Below, in pieces: positions 4,476-41,412 of a stretch of 64,000 nt of DNA. Each line of letters opens with the position of its first letter. Positions within the stretch are counted from its first letter, which is position 1. Under the pieces are notes generated by a model. That model had not been told where the DNA came from. It was given only the letters and a program-made list of their open reading frames with translations, and did no database searches. The translations under genes were made by a program, and so were the position numbers. The stretch lies in the sequence record MK524178.1. One strand, 5' to 3'. This DNA is from Escherichia phage PHB12.

Positions 4476-4520
4476 ATTATTTCCTCATTAGTTAATTCAT
4501 TCTATCATCCGTTTATAAAG

Positions 4521-4546
4521 CAAAAAAGGAACTCCGAAGAGTTCCT
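4521..4546 (-). terminator. rho-independent terminator candidate (stem AGGAACTC/GAGTTCCT, UUCG loop, U-run on minus strand)
   Basis: Perfect 8-bp inverted repeat 4527-4546 preceded on plus strand by AAAAAA (4521-4526), giving hairpin plus U6 on the minus-strand transcript. Confidence 0.6.
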
Positions 4547-4718
4547 ATCCACATAGTACACCGTACAGAGGCTCATTTGAACTTTTAAATCGAATGGGCT
4601 TGTACGTAATAGTTCCTTCGGCTTTAGCTTTATCATAAGACTCTTTAAAACGTCTCATTCTTTCTGCTTTGCCTTTACGGATTTTATCGAAATTTTCAGA
4701 AGTCGGGATGTTCGTCAT
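4545..4718 (-). CDS. small hypothetical protein (57 aa, basic)
   Basis: ATG at 4716-4718 preceded by GAGAGG; ORF MTNIPTSENFDKIRKGKAERMRRFKESYDKAKAEG...; below the ORF-track size cutoff; ends inside the terminator hairpin. Confidence 0.3.
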   Translation of the reverse strand: MTNIPTSENFDKIRKGKAERMRRFKESYDKAKAEGTITYKPIRFKSSNEPLYGVLCG

Positions 4719-4757
4719 GCATAAGCACCTCTCAGAAAATGCCTAAATCGATTTCTC

Positions 4758-4979
4758 TCATCGTTTCCACCATTTCTTAACTTGAAATGAATCAACCCAC
4801 ACGAGTTGTTTTGGGTCTGCCTTTACAATAGGCGGACAAATTTCTGTAATAGAACCGTCGTGATATTCCTTTTCGGAAATTTTAACACAAAGAGGACCAC
4901 CCAATTTAACGGTGAACCCTGCGTTCAGCTTCAGACGTTTAAACTTTGTTTGAACTAGCGCCATTAATGATGTCCTCAA
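4758..4979 (-). CDS. hypothetical protein
   Basis: 73 aa ORF in the 47-55 interval (where T4 carries alpha-gt and small ORFs). Confidence 0.35.
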   Translation of the reverse strand: MRTSLMALVQTKFKRLKLNAGFTVKLGGPLCVKISEKEYHDGSITEICPPIVKADPKQLVWVDSFQVKKWWKR

Positions 4980-5262
4980 TAGCCTGACGAGTAGTAACCC
5001 ACTGGATTTTAATTAACTTGTCATTATACGGTTGTCGTAGAATACCCCGAGATTTCTTAATAGCATATTCGTAAGCTTCGAAGTTGTTTTGAATTGCTGC
5101 TTCTTGAGCATGTGCATAAAGACGGTTTAGTTCAAAACGATTCTTTTTAAGAATCTTTTCGGATTTTTTACGTGCTTCAGCTTCATTTTTCTTTTGGATT
5201 TCTTGTAGCATTTTAGCTACTGCATCTTCTGCTTCTTTATTTTCAATAATCTCGGTAGTCAT
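4939..5262 (-). CDS. hypothetical protein (charged, helical)
   Basis: 107 aa ORF; lysine/glutamate-rich. Confidence 0.4.
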   Translation of the reverse strand: MTTEIIENKEAEDAVAKMLQEIQKKNEAEARKKSEKILKKNRFELNRLYAHAQEAAIQNNFEAYEYAIKKSRGILRQPYNDKLIKIQWVTTRQAIEDIINGASSNKV

Positions 5263-5263
5263 A

Positions 5264-5473
5264 TTATCTCATTAAATTAAAATAAAAACGTCCGTCCTCT
5301 TCAATGCAGAACTCGTACTCAACCGGAGTCCCATTTATCGAAAATGACACGTCGTGTGGGTTCAAAGGATCGATGTCAAAATTAATTTTAAATTCTCGAC
5401 CCAACAGTTTTACCAAATAAGGGATTGCTTCGTCAAAAGGTTCTTCTAAGTAGTTAGAGATATCAATTGTCAT
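5264..5473 (-). CDS. hypothetical protein
   Basis: ORF track gives 5264..5557; trimmed to an internal Met ([11 protein letters not shown]...) because the N-terminal part overlaps the gp55 coding end in another frame. Confidence 0.35.
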
Positions 5474-6020
5474 CCTCATATAAAAAATCCAAACTAGGCG
5501 AATCGCTAACAACTTCCTTCTTTTCAGCCCCAGGAGCTTTATAAGCGGATTCTTCATAATGCGTCATTTTATCGTAGATGTCTTGAATAAACGTTTCATC
5601 TACCAACGCTACCATATCATCGTCATGACTGTCGTAGACATTATGAACGAAGTAACTATATTTCTTTGCAACTTCCTTACGTTCTTTTTTGATACGTTGG
5701 ACAAAAGCATTAAAACAAGCTCGAGTTATGTATGCATGTGGGTTATTGTACTTAGTTTCGTCGAAATTATGAAGTCCCTTAATAGAGGCTTCAATCCCAT
5801 CTGCGATCATCTCCTGCTTCCAAGACTGGGTGTATCCTGAAAAGTTGAAACGTTTGGACAGGCCTTCGGCGATAAGCATAATTGCTAAACCGATGGTATC
5901 ATTCTGACGAATAATTTTGTTTGGGTCTTTATTATTTAAGAGCTCCTTTTTCCACTCGATTATAGCGGCGAGAAGCTCTTTATTATTCACATAGTTATTT
6001 TTAGGTTTTTGTTCAGTCAT
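5463..6020 (-). CDS. 55: late-transcription sigma factor gp55
   Basis: 185 aa; near-identical along its length to T4 gp55 as recalled ([17 protein letters not shown]...[31 protein letters not shown]...). Confidence 0.9.
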
Positions 6021-6041
6021 AAGTACCTCTTAGCTCAATTC

Positions 6042-6076
6042 ATAGGTCTATTATATCATAATATTTAGAGACCTAT
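6042..6076 (-). promoter_or_regulatory. stem-loop with TATAAT in loop upstream of gene 55 (promoter-associated hairpin)
   Basis: Inverted repeat ATAGGTCT(6042-6049)/AGACCTAT(6069-6076); minus-strand loop carries TATAAT; TGCTTT (MotA-box-like) just upstream on minus strand. Confidence 0.4.
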
Positions 6077-6175
6077 CTTAAAGCACGAGATACTATCAAA
6101 GATACATAACTTTCATAAAGTTGTTGACTTAAAATTCACCAAACTTTTCTTCAGTTATACTGATTCGAGTTAATT

Positions 6176-6403
6176 TCATTCTAGTTCCTTTGCTGCTTCA
6201 AGAGCAGCATCCAGCGAATCAAATTGGTCAACGAAATCAATATTCAACGCATCGTCAACCGTAGCATATAACCACCATTGTTTGAATTCATATTCTAGGA
6301 TAAATCCAGGCCCTTCAATCTGAGGAAGACCTAGGCTATTTGTACCAACTTCGTAACCAGCTAGACGCAGGTCATTAATCAAAGTTTCTGTTAATACGCT
6401 CAT
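6176..6403 (-). CDS. hypothetical protein
   Basis: 75 aa acidic ORF; 4-nt overlap with the upstream ORF. Confidence 0.4.
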   Translation of the reverse strand: MSVLTETLINDLRLAGYEVGTNSLGLPQIEGPGFILEYEFKQWWLYATVDDALNIDFVDQFDSLDAALEAAKELE

Positions 6404-6762
6404 TTTACCGCCTTAACAATTTTCAGGTCAACGAATTTTTTCTTACGTTGATTTTTCATACGACGGATAGTCTTTTCAGAGATTTCATGTTTCTGATAAG
6501 CTTTAGATTCAACACCAAATGCAGCAACGTCAAATTCAGAAAGAATATATTGTACTAGAATTTCGCGAATAGAATTACGTCCAATTTTCTGGCCATGTTT
6601 TTGCATGATTTCATAAAGACGGAATTCCCACGCGTCAAGAACTTGAGGAGTAACAATATTGCCGGATTCCAGAAGAGCAACAACTTTATCGAAAGCGAAA
6701 GAATTAACTACGTTTTTGATTTTAGTAGACATATTATTTTCCTCGGTTATTTTATTATCCAA
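6400..6762 (-). CDS. hypothetical protein
   Basis: 120 aa ORF with basic C-terminal tail (RRMKNQRKKKF). Confidence 0.45.
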   Translation of the reverse strand: MDNKITEENNMSTKIKNVVNSFAFDKVVALLESGNIVTPQVLDAWEFRLYEIMQKHGQKIGRNSIREILVQYILSEFDVAAFGVESKAYQKHEISEKTIRRMKNQRKKKFVDLKIVKAVK

Positions 6763-6764
6763 CT

Positions 6765-6800
6765 AGAGAATTATACTCATCTCTCAAGAGTTGTATATTA
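6765..6800 (-). promoter_or_regulatory. early-type promoter with embedded hairpin (CTCTTGAGAG...GAGTATAAT cassette)
   Basis: Minus strand reads ACAACTCTTGAGAGATGAGTATAATTCTCTAGTTGG; closely related copy at 37090-37118. Confidence 0.5.
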
Positions 6801-7037
6801 TTTTTTAAGCATGAAAAGTAAGTAATTTGTATCACGTGGAGTGATATCAACACCCATATCAAAGATGCCTTTATAGATTGGGTATTTGTTTTCGGTTGTA
6901 TCGAAGCTGAAACTATTTCCATCACAACTAACAGTAATAGCATCTGTTAAAATGTCATACTCAATCCTAACAATTGAATCCCCAATTTTAACGTCGAGGT
7001 GTTTTTTGAATTTGATAAAATCTAATTCTTGGGCCAT
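6798..7037 (-). CDS. hypothetical protein
   Basis: 79 aa ORF. Confidence 0.4.
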   Translation of the reverse strand: MAQELDFIKFKKHLDVKIGDSIVRIEYDILTDAITVSCDGNSFSFDTTENKYPIYKGIFDMGVDITPRDTNYLLFMLKK

Positions 7038-7100
7038 GATATTTTCCTCATTTTAAGACGATAGGAAGATAATAACATGTCTTCCTATCGTTGTACATTA

Positions 7101-7301
7101 TTAACCGAACTTTTTAGCGCCTTTCCAGCCTTCGTACATAACTGCACAAGTCAGTAGTACAGCGTGCTGGAATTCTTTGTATTTGTAAATCCAGAACCAA
7201 CGTAAGAAGTCTTCATCCTCAACGCCGTTGAGTTTCATATTGGCAAAGAATTCTGCACGTTCTTCACGAAGTTGCCATGACACAATATTTTCAGGATTCA
7301 T
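7101..7301 (-). CDS. hypothetical protein
   Basis: 66 aa ORF, Trp-rich. Confidence 0.4.
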   Translation of the reverse strand: MNPENIVSWQLREERAEFFANMKLNGVEDEDFLRWFWIYKYKEFQHAVLLTCAVMYEGWKGAKKFG

Positions 7302-7433
7302 TTAAATTTTCCAGTTACCGTTTTCATCAATAAATTTAATCCAGTCATTTACTGACCACTTAGTTGTATCGCCTTTTGGAGCAGAATTTAAAGTGTAGAA
7401 CCCTTGCTTAAAAAGCCAGCGTTTGATATTCAT
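7302..7433 (-). CDS. small hypothetical protein
   Basis: ORF track 7302..7526 trimmed to internal Met (MNIKRWLFKQGF...) to avoid overlap with the 7441..7761 ORF. Confidence 0.25.
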   Translation of the reverse strand: MNIKRWLFKQGFYTLNSAPKGDTTKWSVNDWIKFIDENGNWKI

Positions 7434-7440
7434 AATTTCC

Positions 7441-7761
7441 TCAACTGTAACGATAACATTCGTTAGCTTTACGTTTGGCTTCAGTATGAGAAGTATTATA
7501 ATCATAATCTTCTTTACTGTAAACATCTTTTTTCAACTTACGAACTTCTTTGCGGAGTTGTCGATTCATTTCGTTCTTGACTTCAGAATCAACACCTTTC
7601 ATACGTTTCCATTTATCTGAGCGGAAGATGTTTTCAACCATGTCTTTGTGGCTAACACCGTCAGGAGCTTTACGCTTACCAAAATAGTCGTAATCGCGAA
7701 CTTTCAAATCTTTACGACGATATGTTTTACCCATAAGTACCTCAGAGGTTGATTGATACAA
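7441..7761 (-). CDS. hypothetical basic protein (possible nucleic-acid binding)
   Basis: 106 aa, very rich in Lys/Arg with acidic patches. Confidence 0.4.
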   Translation of the reverse strand: MYQSTSEVLMGKTYRRKDLKVRDYDYFGKRKAPDGVSHKDMVENIFRSDKWKRMKGVDSEVKNEMNRQLRKEVRKLKKDVYSKEDYDYNTSHTEAKRKANECYRYS

Positions 7762-7990
7762 TGCGTTTGATAAAATTCACTTCACTTACTGAAAGGTCTT
7801 TAAGACCGATTGATTCTAAACGCTGAGTAAGCGTCAACATTGGGATATAGTCCCAATGAGTTTTATTTGCTTGATAAGTACGAACGCCATTAGCAATTTC
7901 AACATGCAAATCGGAAATGGTAATGAATACCGGATGCTCGTCATTAACTTTAAGGGTTAGAACAACCTTCTTTGAATCTAAACTAATCAT
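7742..7990 (-). CDS. hypothetical protein
   Basis: 82 aa ORF. Confidence 0.4.
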   Translation of the reverse strand: MISLDSKKVVLTLKVNDEHPVFITISDLHVEIANGVRTYQANKTHWDYIPMLTLTQRLESIGLKDLSVSEVNFIKRIVSINL

Positions 7991-8169
7991 GGCTTAATTT
8001 CCTTCGCAATTGAACAGAAGATACTACGGTCACAAAGCATTTCACCAATTTCTGGATATTTGATTGAACGGTACCAAACATCCAGGCTTGAAACTCCGGT
8101 TATCTGTACTGCGTTACCGTTGACAGAATAGTACTGGTCAACCTTAATTTCTTTATCTTCAATTGTCAT
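7987..8169 (-). CDS. hypothetical protein
   Basis: ORF track 7987..8331 trimmed to internal ATG (MTIEDKEIKV...) preceded by GAGGAA; upstream part is low-complexity and overlaps a promoter/terminator region. Confidence 0.35.
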   Translation of the reverse strand: MTIEDKEIKVDQYYSVNGNAVQITGVSSLDVWYRSIKYPEIGEMLCDRSIFCSIAKEIKP

Positions 8170-8201
8170 TTTGTTTTCCTCTATAGCAGTTGGTTTAATC
8201 T

Positions 8202-8226
8202 TAACACATCTATCGAGGATGTAAAC
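8202..8226 (-). promoter_or_regulatory. early-type promoter candidate (GTTTAC -35, weak -10)
   Basis: Minus strand GTTTAC (rc of 8221-8226) with 17-nt spacer to TAAGAT; upstream of the 7987..8169 ORF. Confidence 0.3.
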
Positions 8227-8318
8227 TGTTTTATGAAAAATATTTTTGATTTGAGAGGGGCACAAGGAGATAGTGAAGTGAAGATTCCAATGGATTATAT
8301 TAGAAATGAGATAAAGAA

Positions 8319-8337
8319 GACCAGGCGGCACCTGGTC
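8319..8337 (-). terminator. hairpin terminator candidate after the nrdH-like gene
   Basis: Inverted repeat GACCAGG/CCTGGTC with 5-nt loop, followed on the minus strand by a T-rich run. Confidence 0.45.
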
Positions 8338-8659
8338 AATCTTCTATGATATCAGAGTCGTATCCTAATGAAATCAAGGACTTTTTAAACTCTGCAATAT
8401 TCTTTTGTTTCTTATCATTTAAAAATATGACAGGATAACGAATATTAAGTGAAGTGAATCCTGCACGTTTAGCAAGAGATACAATTAAAGGACGGTCGTA
8501 TTCAATCTTACCATTATTAGTGAGGACTTTATAAAATGTATAAGGAGCATTGAGCTCCTTTAAAAGTTTTGTAACAGTATAACATCCCGGACAACGTCCT
8601 ACTTCTTCAGGGATGCCATAGATTTCAATCTTGTTCTTTAAGTTCGAGTTTTGTTCCAC
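8336..8659 (-). CDS. nrdH: glutaredoxin-like protein (NrdH-like), probable GTG start
   Basis: CPGC redox motif in ...KIEIYGIPEEVGRCPGCYTVTKLL...; sits next to nrdG/nrdD as in T4; N-terminal 44 residues of the track ORF look like out-of-frame sequence of the overlapping 8625..8942 ORF, so start set at GTG 8657-8659 (AAGGA upstream). Confidence 0.55.
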   Translation of the reverse strand: MEQNSNLKNKIEIYGIPEEVGRCPGCYTVTKLLKELNAPYTFYKVLTNNGKIEYDRPLIVSLAKRAGFTSLNIRYPVIFLNDKKQKNIAEFKKSLISLGYDSDIIED

Positions 8660-8942
8660 GAGAAATAATTCCTTGGTAAGCCCAATAAGGAGGATTAACA
8701 GAATCCTCACCCGAGTTTTCTTCAGGAAAATAAACCTGGATAACGAAGCCGGATTCATCAAATGTAAAATAAACTGTAGGCAGTTCACCTAACAATTCGG
8801 CACGAGCATTAATTTCTTCGAGATCTCGTTCACGTCCAGCCCAAAAACTAGGATTTAGATTACATTCGTAAAAATAATAGTCATTACCGAACATATCAAA
8901 CCCATTCCAACTCTCTACCACGTACCGCTCAAAACTAATCAT
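8625..8942 (-). CDS. hypothetical protein
   Basis: 105 aa acidic, aromatic-rich ORF. Confidence 0.4.
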   Translation of the reverse strand: MISFERYVVESWNGFDMFGNDYYFYECNLNPSFWAGRERDLEEINARAELLGELPTVYFTFDESGFVIQVYFPEENSGEDSVNPPYWAYQGIISRGTKLELKEQD

Positions 8943-8944
8943 AA

Positions 8945-9160
8945 TTAAGCCTTTTTATCAAGAACAGAATTCAGTTTGTTAGTAATTTTGTCCAAACGTT
9001 CATTGAATTCGCTGGAGGATAATCCCTTTTCCGGAGAAATTAAACTAATCACGAAAAATACAACAGTAAAAGGAATAAGAAAAATAGCTCCAACTGCCAT
9101 AAACAGAAAGAATGTTACAGTTGTAAGAAAATCAGCTAAACCTTTACGAAATTTATACAT
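8945..9160 (-). CDS. small membrane protein
   Basis: 71 aa; one strongly hydrophobic segment (TVTFFLFMAVGAIFLIPFTVVFFVISLI). Confidence 0.4.
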   Translation of the reverse strand: MYKFRKGLADFLTTVTFFLFMAVGAIFLIPFTVVFFVISLISPEKGLSSSEFNERLDKITNKLNSVLDKKA

Positions 9161-18936: not shown

Positions 18937-18964
18937 TTTGTTCTCCTCTTGTTTTGATAGGTCT

Positions 18965-18993
18965 ATAATAACATATCCTAAAAGCATGTACAC
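18965..18993 (-). promoter_or_regulatory. early promoter (TGTACA-17-TATTAT) with ATAGGTCTATAATAACAT motif
   Basis: Same cassette sequence family as 17277 and 18680. Confidence 0.45.
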
Positions 18994-19040: not shown

Positions 19041-20030
19041 TCATTTATAGTACGAATTGTGGTTTTCTAAGTAGACTTGCTCAAGGAAATCATCCCAGAA
19101 ACTCATATCTACTTTTTGTTGCATACCGTTCTTGGCAGCTTGTTCTGATGCTTGTTCAACTTTGTCAACGATATCTTCTAGGAATTCTTGTACAGTTTTA
19201 AACGTATGTTTACCAAGCTTAACATCTAGAATAAATGGAGCATCCCGAAGTGGGTAAACCAGGTCGCCGGTTTTATAAATTTCTAATAGTTGAAGTCCAC
19301 CACGACATGCATGACTCAATGCTTTCCAGTCAATACCTTCGTTAGCTTCTGCCTTACGAGCACGTTCGCCATAGTTCTCTTCCAGTTTAACCAGGATGGC
19401 ATTGAACTCTTTATTGGTTAATGTGTCTTGGAATTTACGGTCTAACAGATTATAGAACGTTTGCTTACCTGTTTTCTCGTTTTCGGTTTCAACCCACGAA
19501 GCAAATTCACCTACGGGCAGAACATTCTTCATATGTGATAAACGAATTACTGCACCATTATCAAAGTATTGTCCCCATTCGTTAGAACGTTTAAGGGCTT
19601 GTCGAAGAACAGCCAGTCGAGAACCCTTGACACCATATTTAGAAGCTTGCTTACGGACATACCCTAAATAAGATTTCATGTTAGTAGTATAGAAACGAGA
19701 CCTGTTGTCTTGAATATACTTCCACACGTCAGGCAAATCAGATTTAACTACTAGACTTTGCGGAGTGTGAAGCATATCTAATGCGACAGTTTCACCATCC
19801 ATAGCTAGTTTAAAGAAATATTTGAGACTATACAACTCGTGGTCCACGTCGTCTTTTGTGTTCTTAGAAGATGTGTTATTCGTGTTCTTGCTCATGTGTT
19901 CTTTAACGTTACCAGTCAAGATATCACGAGCATGAGGGACATAAATTTCTTTAAAATCGACGTCAGATTCAGGAGTAGACGTTCCATAAAGGTGACTACC
20001 AAAGTAGCCTTTCATAATTGTTTTCATCAT
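19041..20030 (-). CDS. predicted Pol-beta-superfamily nucleotidyltransferase
   Basis: 329 aa; N-terminal motif GYFGSHLYGTSTPESDVDF (hG[GS]-x9-SDxD); 4-nt overlap with the upstream membrane-protein gene. Confidence 0.5.
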   Translation of the reverse strand: MMKTIMKGYFGSHLYGTSTPESDVDFKEIYVPHARDILTGNVKEHMSKNTNNTSSKNTKDDVDHELYSLKYFFKLAMDGETVALDMLHTPQSLVVKSDLPDVWKYIQDNRSRFYTTNMKSYLGYVRKQASKYGVKGSRLAVLRQALKRSNEWGQYFDNGAVIRLSHMKNVLPVGEFASWVETENEKTGKQTFYNLLDRKFQDTLTNKEFNAILVKLEENYGERARKAEANEGIDWKALSHACRGGLQLLEIYKTGDLVYPLRDAPFILDVKLGKHTFKTVQEFLEDIVDKVEQASEQAAKNGMQQKVDMSFWDDFLEQVYLENHNSYYK

Positions 20031-21221: not shown

Positions 21222-21347
21222 TTTACCATACTCGTTTCAATAAGATTCACTATGCCGTTTACCATGTTATAAGTAAACATCGGATAATTGTATTGTACTA
21301 CAACATAAGCGATAAGCAAAAGTTTCATTTTGTTCTCCATTTGTTTT

Positions 21348-21386
21348 GGTAGGATTACTATATCATAGTCCTACCAAGACGTAAAC
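21348..21386 (-). promoter_or_regulatory. promoter-early stem-loop cassette
   Basis: GGTAGGATTACTATATCATAGTCCTACC inverted repeat with GTTTAC at rc of 21381-21386. Confidence 0.5.
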
Positions 21387-27157: not shown

Positions 27158-27466
27158 TCAATTAGAAAATAAATTTATCCAAGATTTTTCTTTAATCAAA
27201 AATGGGTCGGAATTAAACGCCATTAAACTTTGAGTGATTAATCCCTTAAATGGCCCATCAATAAATTCCATTTTGAAATGTGGAATACTAGTCATCAACC
27301 GTGCATTAGGAGCAGTACAAAGAACGTGCTGCCCTGCGAACGGACCTTTAGTCAAACGATATCGTTTAGGTTTAAAATGGTAAATCTCGTAATTTTCTAC
27401 AAGAGCCCTTTTATTGCATACTGGGCTGTTATAACAATACTCAAAAACTTCAATAGTGGTCATCAT
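27158..27466 (-). CDS. hypothetical protein
   Basis: Track ORF trimmed to internal ATG (MMTTIEVFEY...) giving ATGA overlap with the upstream gene. Confidence 0.4.
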   Translation of the reverse strand: MMTTIEVFEYCYNSPVCNKRALVENYEIYHFKPKRYRLTKGPFAGQHVLCTAPNARLMTSIPHFKMEFIDGPFKGLITQSLMAFNSDPFLIKEKSWINLFSN

Positions 27467-28002
27467 TGCATTCCAATCACAAAAAATTGAGGACGAGCAA
27501 TACCGCCGATGCAATATTTGCTTTTGCAGCAGTGCTGTACTGATTTAATATGGACATTGTAAATCTTATCCATATCAGGAGCTTTAATAGGCTCGTCAAT
27601 TATATACAGAATACGAGAAAGCGTTAATCCACGGAATTTAGAACCTTCATTGCCAATAAAACTACGGACAGAATCAGTAAATAAACGGAATCGAATATCA
27701 TCGCTAGAATAACGAGAAAATTCTTTTTTAATGTTGCCAACAGAAATTTTAGCATAAGCTGAAGTATTAGAAAGAACAATAACTGTTCCACCGTCGTACA
27801 GCCAATTAACAGCAAAATTAGTTACTGCGGTCGATTTACCTGATTGTCTGCCGCCGTCTAAACGAAGTGTACAGTACTGCTTGAGTACGTCTTCAAATGG
27901 CGGGATATAACCATTCTTACAAATTTCTTCTACTCTAGCATCAGAATGGTGTGTAAAAGCATTCATCAGGGATAGATAAGGTCCGGTTAAAAATGTTCTC
28001 AT
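27463..28002 (-). CDS. hypothetical protein with P-loop-like motif
   Basis: 179 aa; GGRQSGKSTA resembles Walker A. Confidence 0.4.
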   Translation of the reverse strand: MRTFLTGPYLSLMNAFTHHSDARVEEICKNGYIPPFEDVLKQYCTLRLDGGRQSGKSTAVTNFAVNWLYDGGTVIVLSNTSAYAKISVGNIKKEFSRYSSDDIRFRLFTDSVRSFIGNEGSKFRGLTLSRILYIIDEPIKAPDMDKIYNVHIKSVQHCCKSKYCIGGIARPQFFVIGMQ

Positions 28003-28243
28003 TTAGTTTCTCTTTTAGGTTGGGCTGTTCCGTGGCACATGAATTGTCCATTTCTGTATTTACCCATTACCGCACTTGGGCTCGACCTTATTACAGGTTG
28101 GCGGGAATCCCTCATAGAATCATGAGGTCCAGGTTGTTCCCATGTTATTTGAATGTAAATATTTTTGCCTTAATACTTATACCAGTGTGGCTTCATTAAA
28201 ATTTTTTCATCGAGTCATTTTACCTCTCCAAGTAATTATGAAT

Positions 28244-28273
28244 ATACTATCACAATTTTAGGAGAAAGTAAAC
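28244..28273 (-). promoter_or_regulatory. early promoter GTTTAC-18-TAGTAT with long structured leader
   Basis: GTTTAC at rc of 28268-28273; the nearest downstream minus-strand gene start is at 28002, implying a leader of about 230 nt. Confidence 0.45.
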
Positions 28274-28275
28274 TG

Positions 28276-28578
28276 TTATTTACCTTTAATTACTTTAGCT
28301 GCTTCGATAGCCGCTTGCTGAAGGTCGTCCATAGACATACCGAATTTAGAAGCAAAGTTATCAATTTTCTTTTCGACAGCATTCAAAGGCTTGGCCTGTT
28401 TACCTTCATTAGCGCCAGGAAGAGCGAGAATACGCTCTTTGTCAATATAAAGGCTTACAAGTTTCTTACGGTCTTTATCGGATAAATCATGAAATGAATG
28501 GGCCTTTTTATTTATAGCGGCTTCTAATTTACCTGCACTCACTCGCGCTTCAGTAATAAATTCTTGATATGTTTTCAT
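28276..28578 (-). CDS. ipI: internal protein I (IPI) precursor
   Basis: 100 aa; N-terminal capsid-targeting leader MKTYQEFITEA and body (KLEAAINKKAHSFHDLSDKDRKKLVSLYIDKERILALPGANEGKQAKPLNAVEKKIDNFASKFGMSMDDLQQAAIEAAK) closely match T4 IPI as recalled. Confidence 0.8.
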   Translation of the reverse strand: MKTYQEFITEARVSAGKLEAAINKKAHSFHDLSDKDRKKLVSLYIDKERILALPGANEGKQAKPLNAVEKKIDNFASKFGMSMDDLQQAAIEAAKVIKGK

Positions 28579-28599
28579 ATGTTTCCTTTAAATGTAAAT

Positions 28600-28617
28600 A
28601 GGCCTAAGTATCGGCCT
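28600..28617 (-). other. intergenic hairpin (AGGCC/GGCCT stem) between two internal-protein genes
   Basis: Inverted repeat AGGCCTAAGTATCGGCCT; no U-run, so more likely a processing/attenuation structure than an intrinsic terminator. Confidence 0.35.
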
Positions 28618-28619
28618 TA

Positions 28620-29198
28620 TTAATTACCACGGGCTGCATTAGCAACGGCATAAGCGTACTGAACATTAGCGTCTTTAAACGTACCTTTAGAGGTGTCTAT
28701 TTCTGCCTTAAAGCCGCCTTTAGCCATAACATCGGCAAATTCTTTACGGAAGGCCATTGCATCAAGACCCTTCCATGATGATTTATGCTTGGCAAATTCA
28801 AGACCTGCGAAGTTGACAGCTTTAGCCAATTTATTATCAATGACCCATTTACCGGCTTTAGGCACAAACTTCGGGCCTTTTTGTTTAGAGAACAGTTTTA
28901 AATTCCAGCGACGAAGATCACTGTCGGCTTTAACAAAAGCTGCGTCTAAGTTACTAGCAACAACATCTTCAATATGAGCAAATTTAAGTCCGTCAACTTC
29001 AATATTTAGATCGTTACGCCAGCGAAGTCCTTCCCAAGCGAAGGCTTTAAAATCAGAAGCTTTTGTGGCTAGATATCGTTCAAGTGGAGCAGTTTTAGGG
29101 TCGAAGCCGTTTCCACCACGATAAGTCCACTCGTCCTTATTAATGCCTTGAGCTTTTCCTGCAAAGGCCTCGGCGATAAATTCTTTATATGTTTTCAT
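28620..29198 (-). CDS. internal-protein-like protein with capsid-targeting leader (IPIII-sized)
   Basis: 192 aa; begins MKTYKEFIAEA (T4 internal-protein leader), then a basic Lys/Ala-rich body. Confidence 0.6.
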   Translation of the reverse strand: MKTYKEFIAEAFAGKAQGINKDEWTYRGGNGFDPKTAPLERYLATKASDFKAFAWEGLRWRNDLNIEVDGLKFAHIEDVVASNLDAAFVKADSDLRRWNLKLFSKQKGPKFVPKAGKWVIDNKLAKAVNFAGLEFAKHKSSWKGLDAMAFRKEFADVMAKGGFKAEIDTSKGTFKDANVQYAYAVANAARGN

Positions 29199-29228
29199 TT
29201 TTGTTTCCTTGTTTGTTTTGATAGAGTA

Positions 29229-29258
29229 ATTATACCATATTAATACTTAAGCGTAAAC
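29229..29258 (-). promoter_or_regulatory. early promoter GTTTAC-18-TATAAT
   Basis: Minus strand GTTTACGCTTAAGTATTAATATGGTATAAT upstream of the 28620..29198 gene. Confidence 0.55.
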
Positions 29259-29261
29259 TGT

Positions 29262-29522
29262 TTAAGCTTTACCGCCGGAAATAATTCCGAAGTTGTTAAA
29301 ATCGTATCCAATATCGTCGACATCTACTTTAGGGCTTGCTACAACATAAGCAATTTCACTACGTTTTGCATAGGTGTTGATTTCTTTACCATCGCCACCT
29401 AAGAAAGAATACCCATTACGTTTTAATGAGCCAAAGTCTTCCGCATCACCAATGAAAGCTTTAACTTTAAATTTGGGGTCTTTGGCATCTGCTTCAATGA
29501 TAAATTCTTGATACATTTTCAT
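29262..29522 (-). CDS. internal-protein-like protein with capsid-targeting leader
   Basis: 86 aa; begins MKMYQEFIIEA. Confidence 0.55.
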   Translation of the reverse strand: MKMYQEFIIEADAKDPKFKVKAFIGDAEDFGSLKRNGYSFLGGDGKEINTYAKRSEIAYVVASPKVDVDDIGYDFNNFGIISGGKA

Positions 29523-29530
29523 TTTTTTCC

Positions 29531-29944
29531 TTAGTAAATTGATTTACCATAGTATTTGTACCAAGTCGGACGTTGAGCAATTTTTTCATCTAAGCGTGCT
29601 TGACTTATCGCAATGGACGCTTCGGACGGGACGTAATTATTACGAAATTCTACAGGAATGTCGGAAATATCCTGGACTGTCGTGTCCTTGATTTTGAAAC
29701 CACGTTTCAAACATTCGGTGATTAGCTCGATTTGACGTAAACGTAAAAATTCGAGTTTGTCGTAAAAGAATGTTACGTGACCTGTGCCTAAGATAAATGT
29801 TGGAGAGATTTTAAAATCTTTTACACGTTTACCGTTTTGAACATGTTTACGGACTGCACCAAATACGCGTGGTAATTCACGATACTCAGCCATAAGATGT
29901 TGGTCGGTCAGTTCGGAAACGAGTGTTAAATTGATACGAGTCAT
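29531..29944 (-). CDS. denV: endonuclease V (pyrimidine dimer DNA glycosylase) DenV
   Basis: From ATG 29942-29944: [34 protein letters not shown]... near-identical to T4 DenV as recalled; 137 aa. Confidence 0.85.
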
Positions 29945-29971
29945 AATTTCCTCCAAGTAGTTGATGAATGT

Positions 29972-30001
29972 ATAGTATCAAAGTCCTTGGAGGAAGTAAA
30001 C
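29972..30001 (-). promoter_or_regulatory. early promoter GTTTAC-18-TACTAT upstream of denV
   Basis: GTTTAC at rc of 29996-30001; GGAGG RBS before denV ATG. Confidence 0.5.
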
Positions 30002-30002
30002 A

Positions 30003-30284
30003 CTATTTTTCTGAAGCGCCCGAAATATATTTTTCAAGACGTTGTTTCATCAGCGAGCCGTTCTTAGCGATTTCTTCCGGTTTATCGCACATACGCAACA
30101 AGGCTTCAAGCTTAACGATATCACTGGTACGTTCAAATTTGCGAGTATCTATCTTACTAGCAAGTTCAGAAATACGTGCTAATAGACTTTCAGCTTCAAC
30201 CAAAGCTGCACCTAGCTTAGTTGCAAATGTGTCAGTAGCTTCGTTAAGAATAGATTCTGATAAAAATTCACTATATGTTTTCAT
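30003..30284 (-). CDS. internal-protein-like protein with capsid-targeting leader
   Basis: Start at ATG 30282-30284 ([11 protein letters not shown]...), ATGA overlap with the stop of e; 93 aa. Confidence 0.5.
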
Positions 30285-30769
30285 ATATACGCTTTCCAAG
30301 TTCCTGTTTTAAATGTTGAGATTACGCGTTTCGCGCGATTAGGTGTCTGACGATACCATTTAGATTGGGCTAGATTTACTGCCGCTTCGTCCCAACGTTT
30401 CTGTTGAAGCATACGAAGAGAATTAGTAAAACCAGCGACGCCTGCTACACCCATTTGGAAGACCATATTGACCAATGCACATCGACGAACTGCATCTAAA
30501 GAATCATATACCGGTTTAAGTTTAGCATTACCCAAGATTCCGCGAACGGCTTTATCAACGTCTTCATTAAATAGCTTTTCAGCCTCATCAAGGGTAATTG
30601 TACCGTTGCATTTACGTCCGATCATTCTGTCAAGTTCAGCTTTAGCTACGGCTAAAGACGGGTTCTTTGTTACTAAATGGCCTATGCCAATCGTCCAAAA
30701 GCCTTCAGTGTCTTTGTATAAAGACAGTCTAAGACCTTCGTCATTACGAAGCATTTCAAATATATTCAT
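30281..30769 (-). CDS. e: lysozyme (endolysin) e
   Basis: From ATG 30767-30769: [32 protein letters not shown]... matches T4 lysozyme as recalled; about 162 aa. Confidence 0.9.
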
Positions 30770-30771
30770 AA

Positions 30772-30795
30772 TACCTCCCACGTTTATAGGAGGTA
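30772..30795 (-). promoter_or_regulatory. gene e leader hairpin sequestering the Shine-Dalgarno, with late-promoter-like TATAAACG inside
   Basis: Inverted repeat TACCTCC/GGAGGTA (30772-30795); minus strand reads TACCTCC-TATAAACG-TGGGAGGTA-TT-ATG. Confidence 0.55.
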
Positions 30796-30803
30796 TTTAT
30801 TAC

Positions 30804-31262
30804 TTATAAGAGGGTAGTGAGCACCTTATATAATGATTTGCCCATTACATATTCCCATTGAGAAGGTTTAATTAAAGCGAATGCATCAAATTCAGGAATC
30901 TGTCGTCCATCCGGGAACGTATGATAGGAATTACAAACACTGTTTCTGAATTGCTCGTGCTCTACAGGGATGGTATATAAGAACAGATGAATATTCTTAT
31001 TGTCTGAGTAATGATGTTCACCTAGGTCTTTCAGGAAGGCAGGGTCATATTGTGTAAACCCAGTTTCTTCTTCGCATTCACGAATAGCGGCTTCGATAGG
31101 AGATTCACCGGGCTCGACACGACCTTTAGGAATATCCCACCGATGAGCTAATGCACCTTTAGGACGAGAACCAGTTACACGGCCCATGAATAACTCTTTA
31201 TCTTCGGTAAGGAAAATAATACCGGCTGATAGTTCTTTCACTTTATTTTTCTTACTCATCAT
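30804..31262 (-). CDS. nudE: Nudix hydrolase NudE
   Basis: 152 aa; Nudix box GRVEPGESPIEAAIRECEEETG; adjacent to e as in T4 (e.1). Confidence 0.8.
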   Translation of the reverse strand: MMSKKNKVKELSAGIIFLTEDKELFMGRVTGSRPKGALAHRWDIPKGRVEPGESPIEAAIRECEEETGFTQYDPAFLKDLGEHHYSDNKNIHLFLYTIPVEHEQFRNSVCNSYHTFPDGRQIPEFDAFALIKPSQWEYVMGKSLYKVLTTLL

Positions 31263-32957: not shown

Positions 32958-32974
32958 AATATTCTCCTCATGTT

Positions 32975-33016
32975 TTAATAGGACTACTATAACATAGTCC
33001 CTATAATTGTGTAAAC
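32975..33016 (-). promoter_or_regulatory. promoter-early stem-loop cassette (ATAGGACTACTATAACATAGTCCCTAT + GTTTAC)
   Basis: Inverted repeat around the -10 region; GTTTAC at rc of 33011-33016. Confidence 0.5.
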
Positions 33017-34253: not shown

Positions 34254-34271
34254 TGTGGACTCCGTTTAATT

Positions 34272-34310
34272 TGATAGGACTACTATAACATAGCCCTATC
34301 TTGTTGTAAA
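34272..34310 (-). promoter_or_regulatory. promoter-early stem-loop cassette
   Basis: TGATAGGACTACTATAACATAGCCCTATC with GTTTAC at rc of 34305-34310. Confidence 0.5.
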
Positions 34311-38349: not shown

Positions 38350-38426
<77 letters not shown>

Positions 38427-38432
38427 CGAATA

Positions 38433-38506
38433 TATGACCCAGACCAGATTCGAACTGGTAACCTTTCCCTTATGAGGGGACTGCTGCTAACCGTTGAGCT
38501 ACAGGG
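38433..38506 (-). tRNA. tRNA with CAT anticodon (Met or lysidine-type Ile)
   Basis: Hand-folded: acceptor GGCCCTG/CTGGGTC (one mismatch), anticodon loop CTCATAA, T-arm ACCAG-TTCGAAT-CTGGT; D-stem has one C-C mismatch. Confidence 0.6.
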
Positions 38507-38587
38507 CCTAAATAACTTTCTATTATGAAAGGCACTTTAGAGCACCTTTGGTAATAGAGGGTATGAATTAATAATAACACATAATTC

Positions 38588-39944: not shown

Positions 39945-39971
39945 TTTATTCTCCATTTACTCATTTGTTTT

Positions 39972-40010
39972 GATAGGACTACTATAACATAGTCCTATAG
40001 GCTTGTATAC
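39972..40010 (-). promoter_or_regulatory. promoter-early stem-loop cassette (ATAGGACTACTATAACATAGTCCTAT)
   Basis: 9-bp inverted repeat ATAGGACTA/TAGTCCTAT enclosing the -10 region; -35-like GTATAC. Confidence 0.55.
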
Positions 40011-40012
40011 CT

Positions 40013-40276
40013 TTATTTCAAATATATTGCGTATTTTTTATAGCCACCAGGCTCGTGTCGAAGACCTTTATCATTCGCAAAACGTTGAATGTTATTGAAC
40101 TGGTTTTCATCAAGTTCGGATGTGTCAAATACGAAAAAGTTTCGTTTGTTACCAAGCGTGATATGCGGAGTTAAGTCAATGTTATACAAATTAAGAATAT
40201 CAGCAATAACCTGATTAACCGCTTTGTTAATTTTCACACCAGATGATTCTGAGATGAATTCGTTGAAAGTTTTCAT
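40013..40276 (-). CDS. internal-protein-like protein with capsid-targeting leader
   Basis: Start at ATG 40274-40276 (MKTFNEFISES...); 87 aa. Confidence 0.5.
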   Translation of the reverse strand: MKTFNEFISESSGVKINKAVNQVIADILNLYNIDLTPHITLGNKRNFFVFDTSELDENQFNNIQRFANDKGLRHEPGGYKKYAIYLK

Positions 40277-40300
40277 TTTAGGTTCCATTTGGTTGTTTTG

Positions 40301-40337
40301 ATAGGACTACTATAACATAGTCCTATCATGTTGTAAA
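40301..40337 (-). promoter_or_regulatory. promoter-early stem-loop cassette (same 26-nt hairpin as 39972)
   Basis: ATAGGACTACTATAACATAGTCCTATC followed by TTTACA at rc of 40332-40337 (17-nt spacer to TATAGT). Confidence 0.55.
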
Positions 40338-40649
40338 TTATTTTATGCCTTTAGAAGAAATGGTATTTTGGCGTTTGACCCCTGTTTGTGAAAAATCGTG
40401 GTTATCGATTTGGTCAACTCGCATAACACCAAATGCGGATTTAATTTTGGCTTTTGAACCTTTTTTGATACTAATTACCATATAAGTATCATTTTTCTTA
40501 TATTCGAAATTTGTTACTTCAACGCCTTGATTAGAAATTGACTTAATAATAGCATTAGCGTATTCATCATCTAACGGACCGTTAGTGTTAATAATAAAAT
40601 TTTTATCCGCTTTAGTAGCTTCCGCGATGAATTCTTGATAGGTTTTCAT
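40338..40649 (-). CDS. internal-protein-like protein with capsid-targeting leader
   Basis: 103 aa; begins MKTYQEFIAEA. Confidence 0.55.
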   Translation of the reverse strand: MKTYQEFIAEATKADKNFIINTNGPLDDEYANAIIKSISNQGVEVTNFEYKKNDTYMVISIKKGSKAKIKSAFGVMRVDQIDNHDFSQTGVKRQNTISSKGIK

Positions 40650-40676
40650 TTTATTTCCTTGAGGTTGTTTATTTGA

Positions 40677-40713
40677 TAGGATGATAGTAACACACCATCA
40701 TCCTTATGTAAAC
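40677..40713 (-). promoter_or_regulatory. promoter-early stem-loop cassette variant (AGGATGAT/ATCATCCT stem)
   Basis: 8-bp inverted repeat around TAGTAACAC; GTTTAC at rc of 40708-40713. Confidence 0.5.
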
Positions 40714-40726
40714 TGTTTTGTGAAAA

Positions 40727-41412
<686 letters not shown>

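Follow-up and report, generated by a model that had tools for sequence, protein, structure and literature searches.

The head of phage T4 holds about 1000 molecules of internal protein (IP), some 300 per IP, and these are ejected together with the DNA (PMC9026906; PMC3012670). T4 Ip1, Ip2 and Ip3 each inhibit one specific GmrSD type IV enzyme without cross-protection, the targets demonstrated for the T4 proteins being GmrSD-ECOR21 for Ip2 and GmrS1/GmrSD2-ECOR17 for Ip3 (PMC12373910), while T4 IpI/IPI* is an inhibitor of GmrSD-CT596. Mutagenesis of T4 IPIII has shown that targeting depends on leader positions 4 and 7, and processing by the prohead protease gp21 on positions 8 and 10, and the first 10 residues of IPIII suffice to target even foreign proteins into the prohead core (PMC9026906). 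More than 30 IP variants have been catalogued before (PMC2839356), and the two IP loci are hypervariable, with PeSL-like promoter/stem-loop elements thought to mediate their shuffling (PMC2839356; PMC4122927). Here we describe six genes with a T4-type internal-protein leader in a stretch of 64,000 nucleotides (nt) from Escherichia phage PHB12 (MK524178.1), the whole of which we call the window. These genes very probably make up the two IP loci of an RB69-like T-even phage and encode packaged and injected anti-defence proteins carried in exchangeable cassettes.

By megablast, the window is of Mosigvirus (RB69-like T-even) type, 96-98% identical to RPN187, AV112, mogra, PTE-Eco05, SF and others. 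In phage mogra (MN850579) all six genes recur in unchanged order, their proteins near-identical, and published Mosigviruses show only point differences, some of their annotations reading 'hypothetical protein'.

Six leaders and six unrelated bodies

Searching all six frames of the 64-kb window with the regular expression MK.[YFW].[ED]F[ILVM].E returned exactly six starts, all belonging to the open reading frames (ORFs) that a preliminary description of this DNA had named. The coordinates given there were correct; every one of the six lies on the minus strand, which had been left out. The motif MK(T/M)(Y/F)xEF(I/L)xE is common to all six starts, and 300 second-order Markov simulations of the window yielded no match to the leader motif. 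An additional ORF caught by a looser pattern, at 19041-19679, owes its match to an internal Met of a nucleotidyltransferase (phrog_388) and was discarded as a false positive.

With the candidate cleavage position marked by an arrow, the leaders read MKTYQEFITE↓A in ipII (start at 28578), MKTYKEFIAE↓A in ipIII (29198), MKMYQEFIIE↓A in IpY (29522), MKTFNEFISE↓S in Ip9 (40276) and MKTYQEFIAE↓A in Ip7 (40649). The leader of IpX (start at 30284) has two candidate cleavage sites, LSE↓S at positions 8-10 and then ILNE↓A (SILNE↓A). Both targeting determinants, an aromatic residue (Y or F) at position 4 and F at 7, are kept in 6/6 leaders. The N-terminal comparison proposed earlier for locating a cleavage site also gave a uniform answer, since the gp21 motif (I/L)xE stands at positions 8-10 and is followed by a small residue in all six (ITE↓A, IAE↓A, IIE↓A, LSE↓S plus LNE↓A, ISE↓S and IAE↓A). 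In a set of 130 unique leader-bearing ORFs taken from related phages, [ILVM]xE stands at these positions in 120, the residue after the motif is Ala in 73 and Ser in 31, and the consensus is M-K-T-Y-(Q/K/N)-E-F-(I/L)-(T/A)-E ↓ (A/S).

In the program-made ORF listing, two of the genes were given upstream TTG/ATG starts (30299 and 40288); the leader-consistent starts at 30284 and 40276 are preferred. The first of these genes has an ortholog, ORF127c, with an odd leader, MKTYMNFYQNLSLNE, in the deposited RB69 record (AY303349). Compared with window positions 30225-30300 and with mogra, ORF127c contains a compensating -1/+1 pair of indels 21 nt apart, which scrambles leader residues 5-12 but leaves the LNE↓A site after them intact. 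Either the 2003 record contains a sequencing error here, or the leader is truly degenerate.

Beyond the leaders the six proteins are unrelated, as had been proposed. BLASTP among the leader-trimmed bodies gave no significant match, and in profile-profile alignment of the trimmed bodies with hhalign no pair exceeded a probability of 2.4%. A homology between Ip7 and IpY was considered, both proteins matching phrog_2667 and showing 29-33% identity in a MAFFT alignment. With the leaders trimmed the hhalign probability was 0.7%, leaving the homology unsupported, and the loss of the link on trimming indicates that the shared PHROG match is probably leader-driven. All six proteins match PHROG families labelled internal head or virion protein (E 2.6e-21 to 2e-117). 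No significant family was found for the six proteins in Pfam and NCBIfam, which have no models for these families, and a PDB sequence search with all six gave nothing significant. The ORFs are all intact, with canonical leaders, and keep 95-100% identity across tens to hundreds of phage genomes. After cleavage the predicted mature proteins would be 76-182 amino acids (aa) long, and four of the six would be basic, with an isoelectric point (pI) of 9.0-9.7.

Both clusters occupy canonical IP loci, the first in the e/denV region and the second between 57B and the tRNA genes. At the first locus, the gene at 28276-28578 had been called ipI in the preliminary description. This name was wrong: the 100-aa product (mature 90 aa, pI 9.7) aligns with T4 IpII along its whole length at 93% identity, has a match to phrog_7857 'internal virion protein' (4.5e-55) and is annotated ipII in mogra. 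Its neighbour ipIII (28620-29198) encodes 192 aa (mature 182 aa, pI 9.6) that are 92% identical to T4 IpIII from end to end (phrog_5341, 2e-117). The protein that we call IpY (29262-29522; 86 aa, mature 76 aa with an acidic pI of 5.2) is 98% identical to its ortholog RB69 ORF125c, an 'internal head protein' in RefSeq; it matches phrog_2667 and phrog_35655 and is present in 217 phage records (tblastn). IpX (30003-30284; 93 aa, mature pI 6.3), the ortholog of RB69 ORF127c, belongs to an Ip5/IpV-like family (phrog_3499 'internal head protein', 1.2e-46). It was found in 496 phage records (tblastn), many of them 100% identical, and shares about 48% identity with the 'ipV' protein of Yersinia phage PST.

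The interleaving of denV and lysozyme with these genes, noted in the preliminary description, is real. The conserved non-IP gene denV (29531-29944, minus strand), which encodes endonuclease V, is 90% identical to T4 DenV and annotated as such in mogra and RB69; it stands between two IP genes, and ipY starts 8 nt past its stop codon. The T4-type lysozyme gene e (30281-30769, minus strand) is 81% identical to T4 e and annotated as lysozyme in relatives. The ORF finder chose a GTG at 30781, but the real start of the gene is the ATG at 30769 (MNIFEML). The ATG of ipX overlaps the e stop codon (ATGA), an arrangement by which e and ipX are translationally coupled. In the place of RB69 vs.8, shortly after ipII, a minus-strand gene at 27463-28002 encodes a 179-aa protein. 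It falls in a PHROG without a function label and shows a weak match to the ATPase region of the terminase large subunit (phrog_2, 1e-6); the label 'endoribonuclease' given to its mogra counterpart looks like an annotation error.

The second locus holds Ip7 (40338-40649; 103 aa, mature 93 aa, pI 9.5; phrog_2667, 1.8e-38), the ortholog of RB69 ORF156c; in mogra it bears the annotation 'internal head protein 7', and homologs in the databases are named 'Ip7 protein'. Next to it lies Ip9 (40013-40276; 87 aa, mature 77 aa, pI 9.0; phrog_7673, 4.8e-49), named 'Ip9' in the mogra record, in the slot that holds ipI in RB69 and T4. No homolog of T4 IpI was found in the window (tblastn best E 0.8; hhalign probability at most 2.4%). 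The conserved flank of this locus is 57B (40727-41182, minus strand), 85.5% identical to T4 57B and annotated in RB69. On the other side of the locus, at 38352-38508 on the minus strand, lie the only two tRNA genes of the phage, Arg-TCT and Met-CAT, as in RB69, whereas T4 has eight there. An AlphaFold2 model of Ip7 built from a shallow 8-sequence alignment had a predicted local distance difference test score (pLDDT) of 67.8, with a core of about 85 at residues 13-70 arranged as beta-alpha-beta-beta-beta. Foldseek of this model against the PDB returned only generic ACT/RRM-like alpha/beta folds (best E 0.07, none at or below 0.001), and the 50 matches listed included no IPI* entry.

Gene order and cassette exchange

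In the direction of transcription the window reads nudE, e, ipX, denV, ipY, ipIII, ipII at the first locus and 57B, ip7, ip9, trna.4 at the second. T4 has nudE, e, ipIII, ipII, denV, with ipI adjoining 57B, so the difference from the T4 arrangement remarked on earlier does exist, but it is no oddity: RB69 has nudE, e, ORF127c, denV, ORF125c, ORF124c, ORF123c and 57B, ORF156c (Ip7), ipI. The layout is the ordinary Mosigvirus/RB69 scaffold with two cassette swaps. The scaffold and order are shared with RB69, as are IpX (ORF127c), IpY (ORF125c) and Ip7 (ORF156c); ipIII and ipII stand in place of ORF124c and ORF123c, and ip9 stands in place of ipI.

The junctions of both swaps can be placed on the sequence. 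Nucleotide identity to RB69 is 95-98% except at 28102-29169, which covers the ipII and ipIII bodies, and at 40011-40249, the ip9 body. Two of the breakpoints, 29170 and 40250, fall inside leader codons, and a third, 40010, falls in the downstream promoter/stem-loop repeat of ip9. The promoter, ribosome-binding site and first nine or so leader codons of ipIII are nearly those of RB69 ORF124c and unlike T4, whereas from about codon 10 onwards the gene is like T4 ipIII. Similarly, the promoter/stem-loop upstream of ip9 and the first part of its leader follow RB69 ipI, whereas the body has lost this identity, which returns exactly at the downstream element. The 3' junction of the ipIII/ipII swap lies near 28101-28210, a region to which no element is assigned. 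The ipII and ipIII bodies are 90-91% identical to T4 at the nucleotide level, compared with 71-81% for the flanking genes, which indicates transfer between genera.

The ip9 gene is bracketed by 43-nt direct repeats (40293-40335 upstream and 39965-40007 immediately downstream, minus strand) that are 91% identical, and in each a T4-early-type promoter, TTTACA-N17-TATAGT, overlaps a stable hairpin. The hairpin of the upstream copy folds at -17.8 kcal/mol (z -5.0), and RB69 homology resumes at the downstream copy. A related element upstream of ip7 (40672-40712, minus strand; TTTACA-N17-TACTAT, -16.8 kcal/mol, z -3.4) is the third member of this repeat family (D2). With its bracketing repeats, stable hairpins and 3' breakpoint within a repeat, ip9 has the features of a PeSL cassette; for ipIII/ipII the corresponding feature is the 5' breakpoint in the leader. 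The first locus has its own pair of early-promoter-like elements on the minus strand (family D3), one just downstream of ipII (28243-28273, reading GTTTAC...TAGTAT / TACTAT) and one downstream of ipX and upstream of denV (29971-30001). These are direct repeats of each other with 77% identity.

The promoter/stem-loop element TGTTATAGTAGTCCTATCAAAACAA, allowing at most three mismatches, occurs in six copies in the window, at 18949-18973, 21341-21365, 32970-32994, 34266-34290, 39965-39989 and 40293-40317. All are on the minus strand, and none would be expected by chance. With copies spread across the window in this way, PeSL-like elements belong to the variable regions in general, not to the IP loci in particular.

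The genes thus behave as exchangeable cassettes, very probably by a shuffling mechanism that has been proposed before: the conserved leader codons and the early-promoter/stem-loop elements serve as short homologies at which recombination swaps bodies between phages. Cassette exchange of this kind would account for both the divergent cargo and the non-T4 arrangement. The content of a slot also varies between close relatives: phage phiE142 appears to carry ipIII without ipII (three leader-bearing ORFs detected; megablast coverage 88%), which suggests variation even among near-identical Mosigviruses.

In a phage collection searched with megablast, the first locus is covered to at least 80% in 38 phage records and the second in 31. 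To gauge the breadth of the family, both loci were retrieved from 25 T4-like IMG/VR genomes and scanned for leader-bearing ORFs, whose bodies were then clustered. With one false positive excluded, 29 distinct body clusters were found. The number of leader-bearing genes ranged from at least one to six per genome, with a median of at least four, these being lower bounds because the flanks were limited. The six genes of the window are at the top of this range and not outside it, and each of the proteins falls in a multi-member cluster.

Predicted packaging, expression and possible roles

The four leader positions that are critical in T4 IPIII are kept in all six proteins, and from this we infer packaging, cleavage and injection. 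The preliminary description had called the leader a capsid-targeting sequence (CTS) that is removed by the prohead protease, which agrees with the published T4 work and, for these six genes, would follow from the conserved residues. In such a scheme, the CTS of about 10 N-terminal residues would dock the protein on the scaffolding core of the prohead, gp21 would cut after the Glu of (I/L)xE, and the mature protein of 76-182 aa would stay among the head DNA and go in with the genome at the next infection. A protein injected with the genome would be present before any phage gene is expressed. T4 IPIII expressed in the host without its CTS still rescues T4 on ECOR17 (PMC9391042), which shows that IPIII acts in the cytoplasm.

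Once injected, the IpII and IpIII copies would be predicted to inhibit two distinct GmrSD type IV systems, by orthology to the T4 proteins: IpII the ECOR21/BrxU type and IpIII the two-gene ECOR17 type. The precedent originally cited for an anti-restriction role was IPI, which is not directly applicable to a window without IpI; the precedents of Ip2 and Ip3 do apply. The likeliest role for Ip7, Ip9, IpX and IpY, by analogy, is that of additional host-specific inhibitors of defence. The earlier proposal of six candidate injected anti-defence effectors is partly upheld: its core agrees with published work and with the sequence evidence, but the set is not a new one and four of its members are candidates by inference only.

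Several points weigh against this reading. Virion presence, cleavage, injection and anti-defence activity would all be carried over from work on T4. The gp21 protease and gp22 scaffold genes would, by synteny with T4, lie outside the 64-kb window; both are core genes of all T4-like phages. When Ip4-10 were assayed against a panel of active GmrSD systems there was no reproducible inhibition (PMC12373910 text, Supplementary Fig. 9), which makes an anti-restriction role conjectural for Ip7, Ip9 and the Ip5-like protein. RB69-type DNA contains arabinosylated 5-hydroxycytosine, not glucosyl-hydroxymethylcytosine (glucosyl-hmC), and T4 glucosyltransferases are lacking (PMC13326640). With arabinosylated DNA, the GmrSD enzymes that Ip2 and Ip3 inhibit may or may not matter to this phage.

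Expression is a further difficulty. None of the six ip genes has an exact late promoter TATAAATA directly before it, the nearest promoters are early-type, and late expression would therefore have to come by read-through, for example from the late region of e. The one exact match to TATAAATA in the region, at 28509-28516, falls inside the ipII coding sequence and was rejected. The promoter upstream of ipIII (29229-29257, minus strand) is of the T4 early type, TTTACG-N17-TATAAT with a TG extension (10/12 in the promoter scan), and its sequence is almost that which precedes RB69 ORF124c. Between ipIII and ipII lies a GC-rich stem-loop resembling a terminator (28600-28617, minus strand; -9.4 kcal/mol, z -3.0). 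Upstream of e, a hairpin at 30770-30808 on the minus strand (-18.4 kcal/mol, z -3.1), whose stem pairs ACCUCC with GGGAGGU, hides the e ribosome-binding site. Late-promoter-like TATAA(G/A)TA motifs occur at this hairpin, with one-mismatch late-promoter motifs at 30808-30794, and the region 30770-30808 is a likely source of late e-ipX transcripts. The arrangement resembles the early/late translational control known for T4 e. Late expression of the ip genes by read-through is plausible.

The question of DNA modification can be taken a step further. The interval after gene 47 (4476-9000), where T4 has a-gt, contains no ORF of alpha-glucosyltransferase size (about 400 aa). This is consistent with an arabinosyl-5-hydroxycytosine chemistry whose modification genes lie outside the window. 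We offer, as a tentative and on balance doubtful proposal, that the ipIII and ipII pair crossed into Mosigvirus from glucosyl-hmC phages of Tequatrovirus type. The GmrSD enzymes blocked by Ip2 and Ip3 would then also attack arabinosylated DNA, or the two proteins would have a second target, and the four orphan proteins (Ip7, Ip9, IpX and IpY), negative with the GmrSD panel as far as they were assayed, may inhibit defences other than GmrSD.

A different explanation is that the six proteins are mainly structural or physical components of the head, basic proteins that bind DNA, neutralise charge and help to assemble the head or package the DNA, and not inhibitors of defence. The basic character of four of the mature proteins agrees with this, but IpY and IpX are acidic or near neutral. 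In T4, lysines of the roughly 1000 IP molecules contact DNA phosphates (PMC3012670), and IPIII mutants assemble heads more slowly and give a burst of about 40% of normal (PMC9026906); yet T4 can do without its IP genes on laboratory hosts, and Ip1-3 act on specific defence systems. Bodies that are unrelated and freely swapped between close relatives, in genes numbering from one to six per sampled phage, are moreover a poor fit to a fixed structural need. We regard a mainly structural role as unlikely, although structural and anti-defence roles are not mutually exclusive.

It is less likely again that some of the proteins are injected effectors of host take-over or of phage competition, acting through transcription modification like T4 Alt or through superinfection exclusion. 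All three IPs of known function are restriction inhibitors, the replacement of these genes from strain to strain is typical of arms-race loci, and no catalytic domain was found with Pfam or NCBIfam. These points are set against the versatility of the CTS, which brings almost any cargo into the head, including green fluorescent protein, nucleases and beta-galactosidase (PMC9026906), against the want of reproducible inhibition by Ip4-10 of the GmrSD systems assayed, and against the Ip7 model, a generic alpha/beta sandwich with no informative structural match.

That one or more of the genes are decaying cassette remnants, or early-only genes whose products never enter proheads, is very improbable, for although only early-type promoters adjoin ipIII, ip7 and ip9, with no exact late promoter, and the scrambled leader of the RB69 IpX ortholog indicates that leaders can degrade (or be mis-sequenced), the six ORFs with their canonical leaders are intact and conserved in tens to hundreds of phage genomes, the aligned region upstream of T4 ipIII likewise has no TATAAATA and yet T4 IPIII is packaged, and ipX is coupled in translation to the late-expressed lysozyme gene.

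Relation to known internal-protein systems

As a discovery the six genes carry little weight, since T-even IPs, their leader, the hypervariable loci and the anti-restriction role are all established. The genes themselves, the variability and the mechanism of shuffling were already known, and the same six genes are found in public genomes. Repoila et al. in 1994 are said, in later papers, to have recognised the hypervariability of the two IP loci (cited in PMC2839356) and to have noted PeSL-like elements there. The value of the window is that it provides a clean base-level example of cassette exchange, with crossovers in leader codons and in promoter/stem-loop repeats. For screens of anti-defence activity, reasonable choices would be Ip7, Ip9, the Ip5-like protein and the ORF125c-like protein. 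The occurrence of T4-type Ip2 and Ip3 in a lineage with differently modified DNA also raises a question about the substrate range of GmrSD, as the presence of this cassette suggests that GmrSD subtypes threaten arabinosylated DNA as well, or that Ip2 and Ip3 have other targets.

Among the closest described systems are T4 IpII and IpIII, whose genes are adjacent and in the same order (ipIII then ipII) and whose leaders are the same as, or nearly the same as, those of the window copies. In T4 this pair lies between e and denV, whereas the window copies lie downstream of denV and IpY. T4 IpI/IPI*, which has a 19-residue leader cut at ITE↓A, shares the packaging concept with the proteins described here, and its locus next to 57B is the one where the window has Ip7 and Ip9. 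With the PeSL modules (Arbiol et al. 2010; Comeau et al. 2014) the window shares an early promoter and stem-loop flanking small variable ORFs, direct repeats bracketing ip9, and a homology breakpoint within the element. Unlike the RB49-type PeSL, which is sigma70-like with a G/C stem, the elements here have the T4-type early consensus TTTAC-N17-TAYWAT and AT-rich stems, and unlike PeSL shuffling the 5' crossover here lies in the leader codons.

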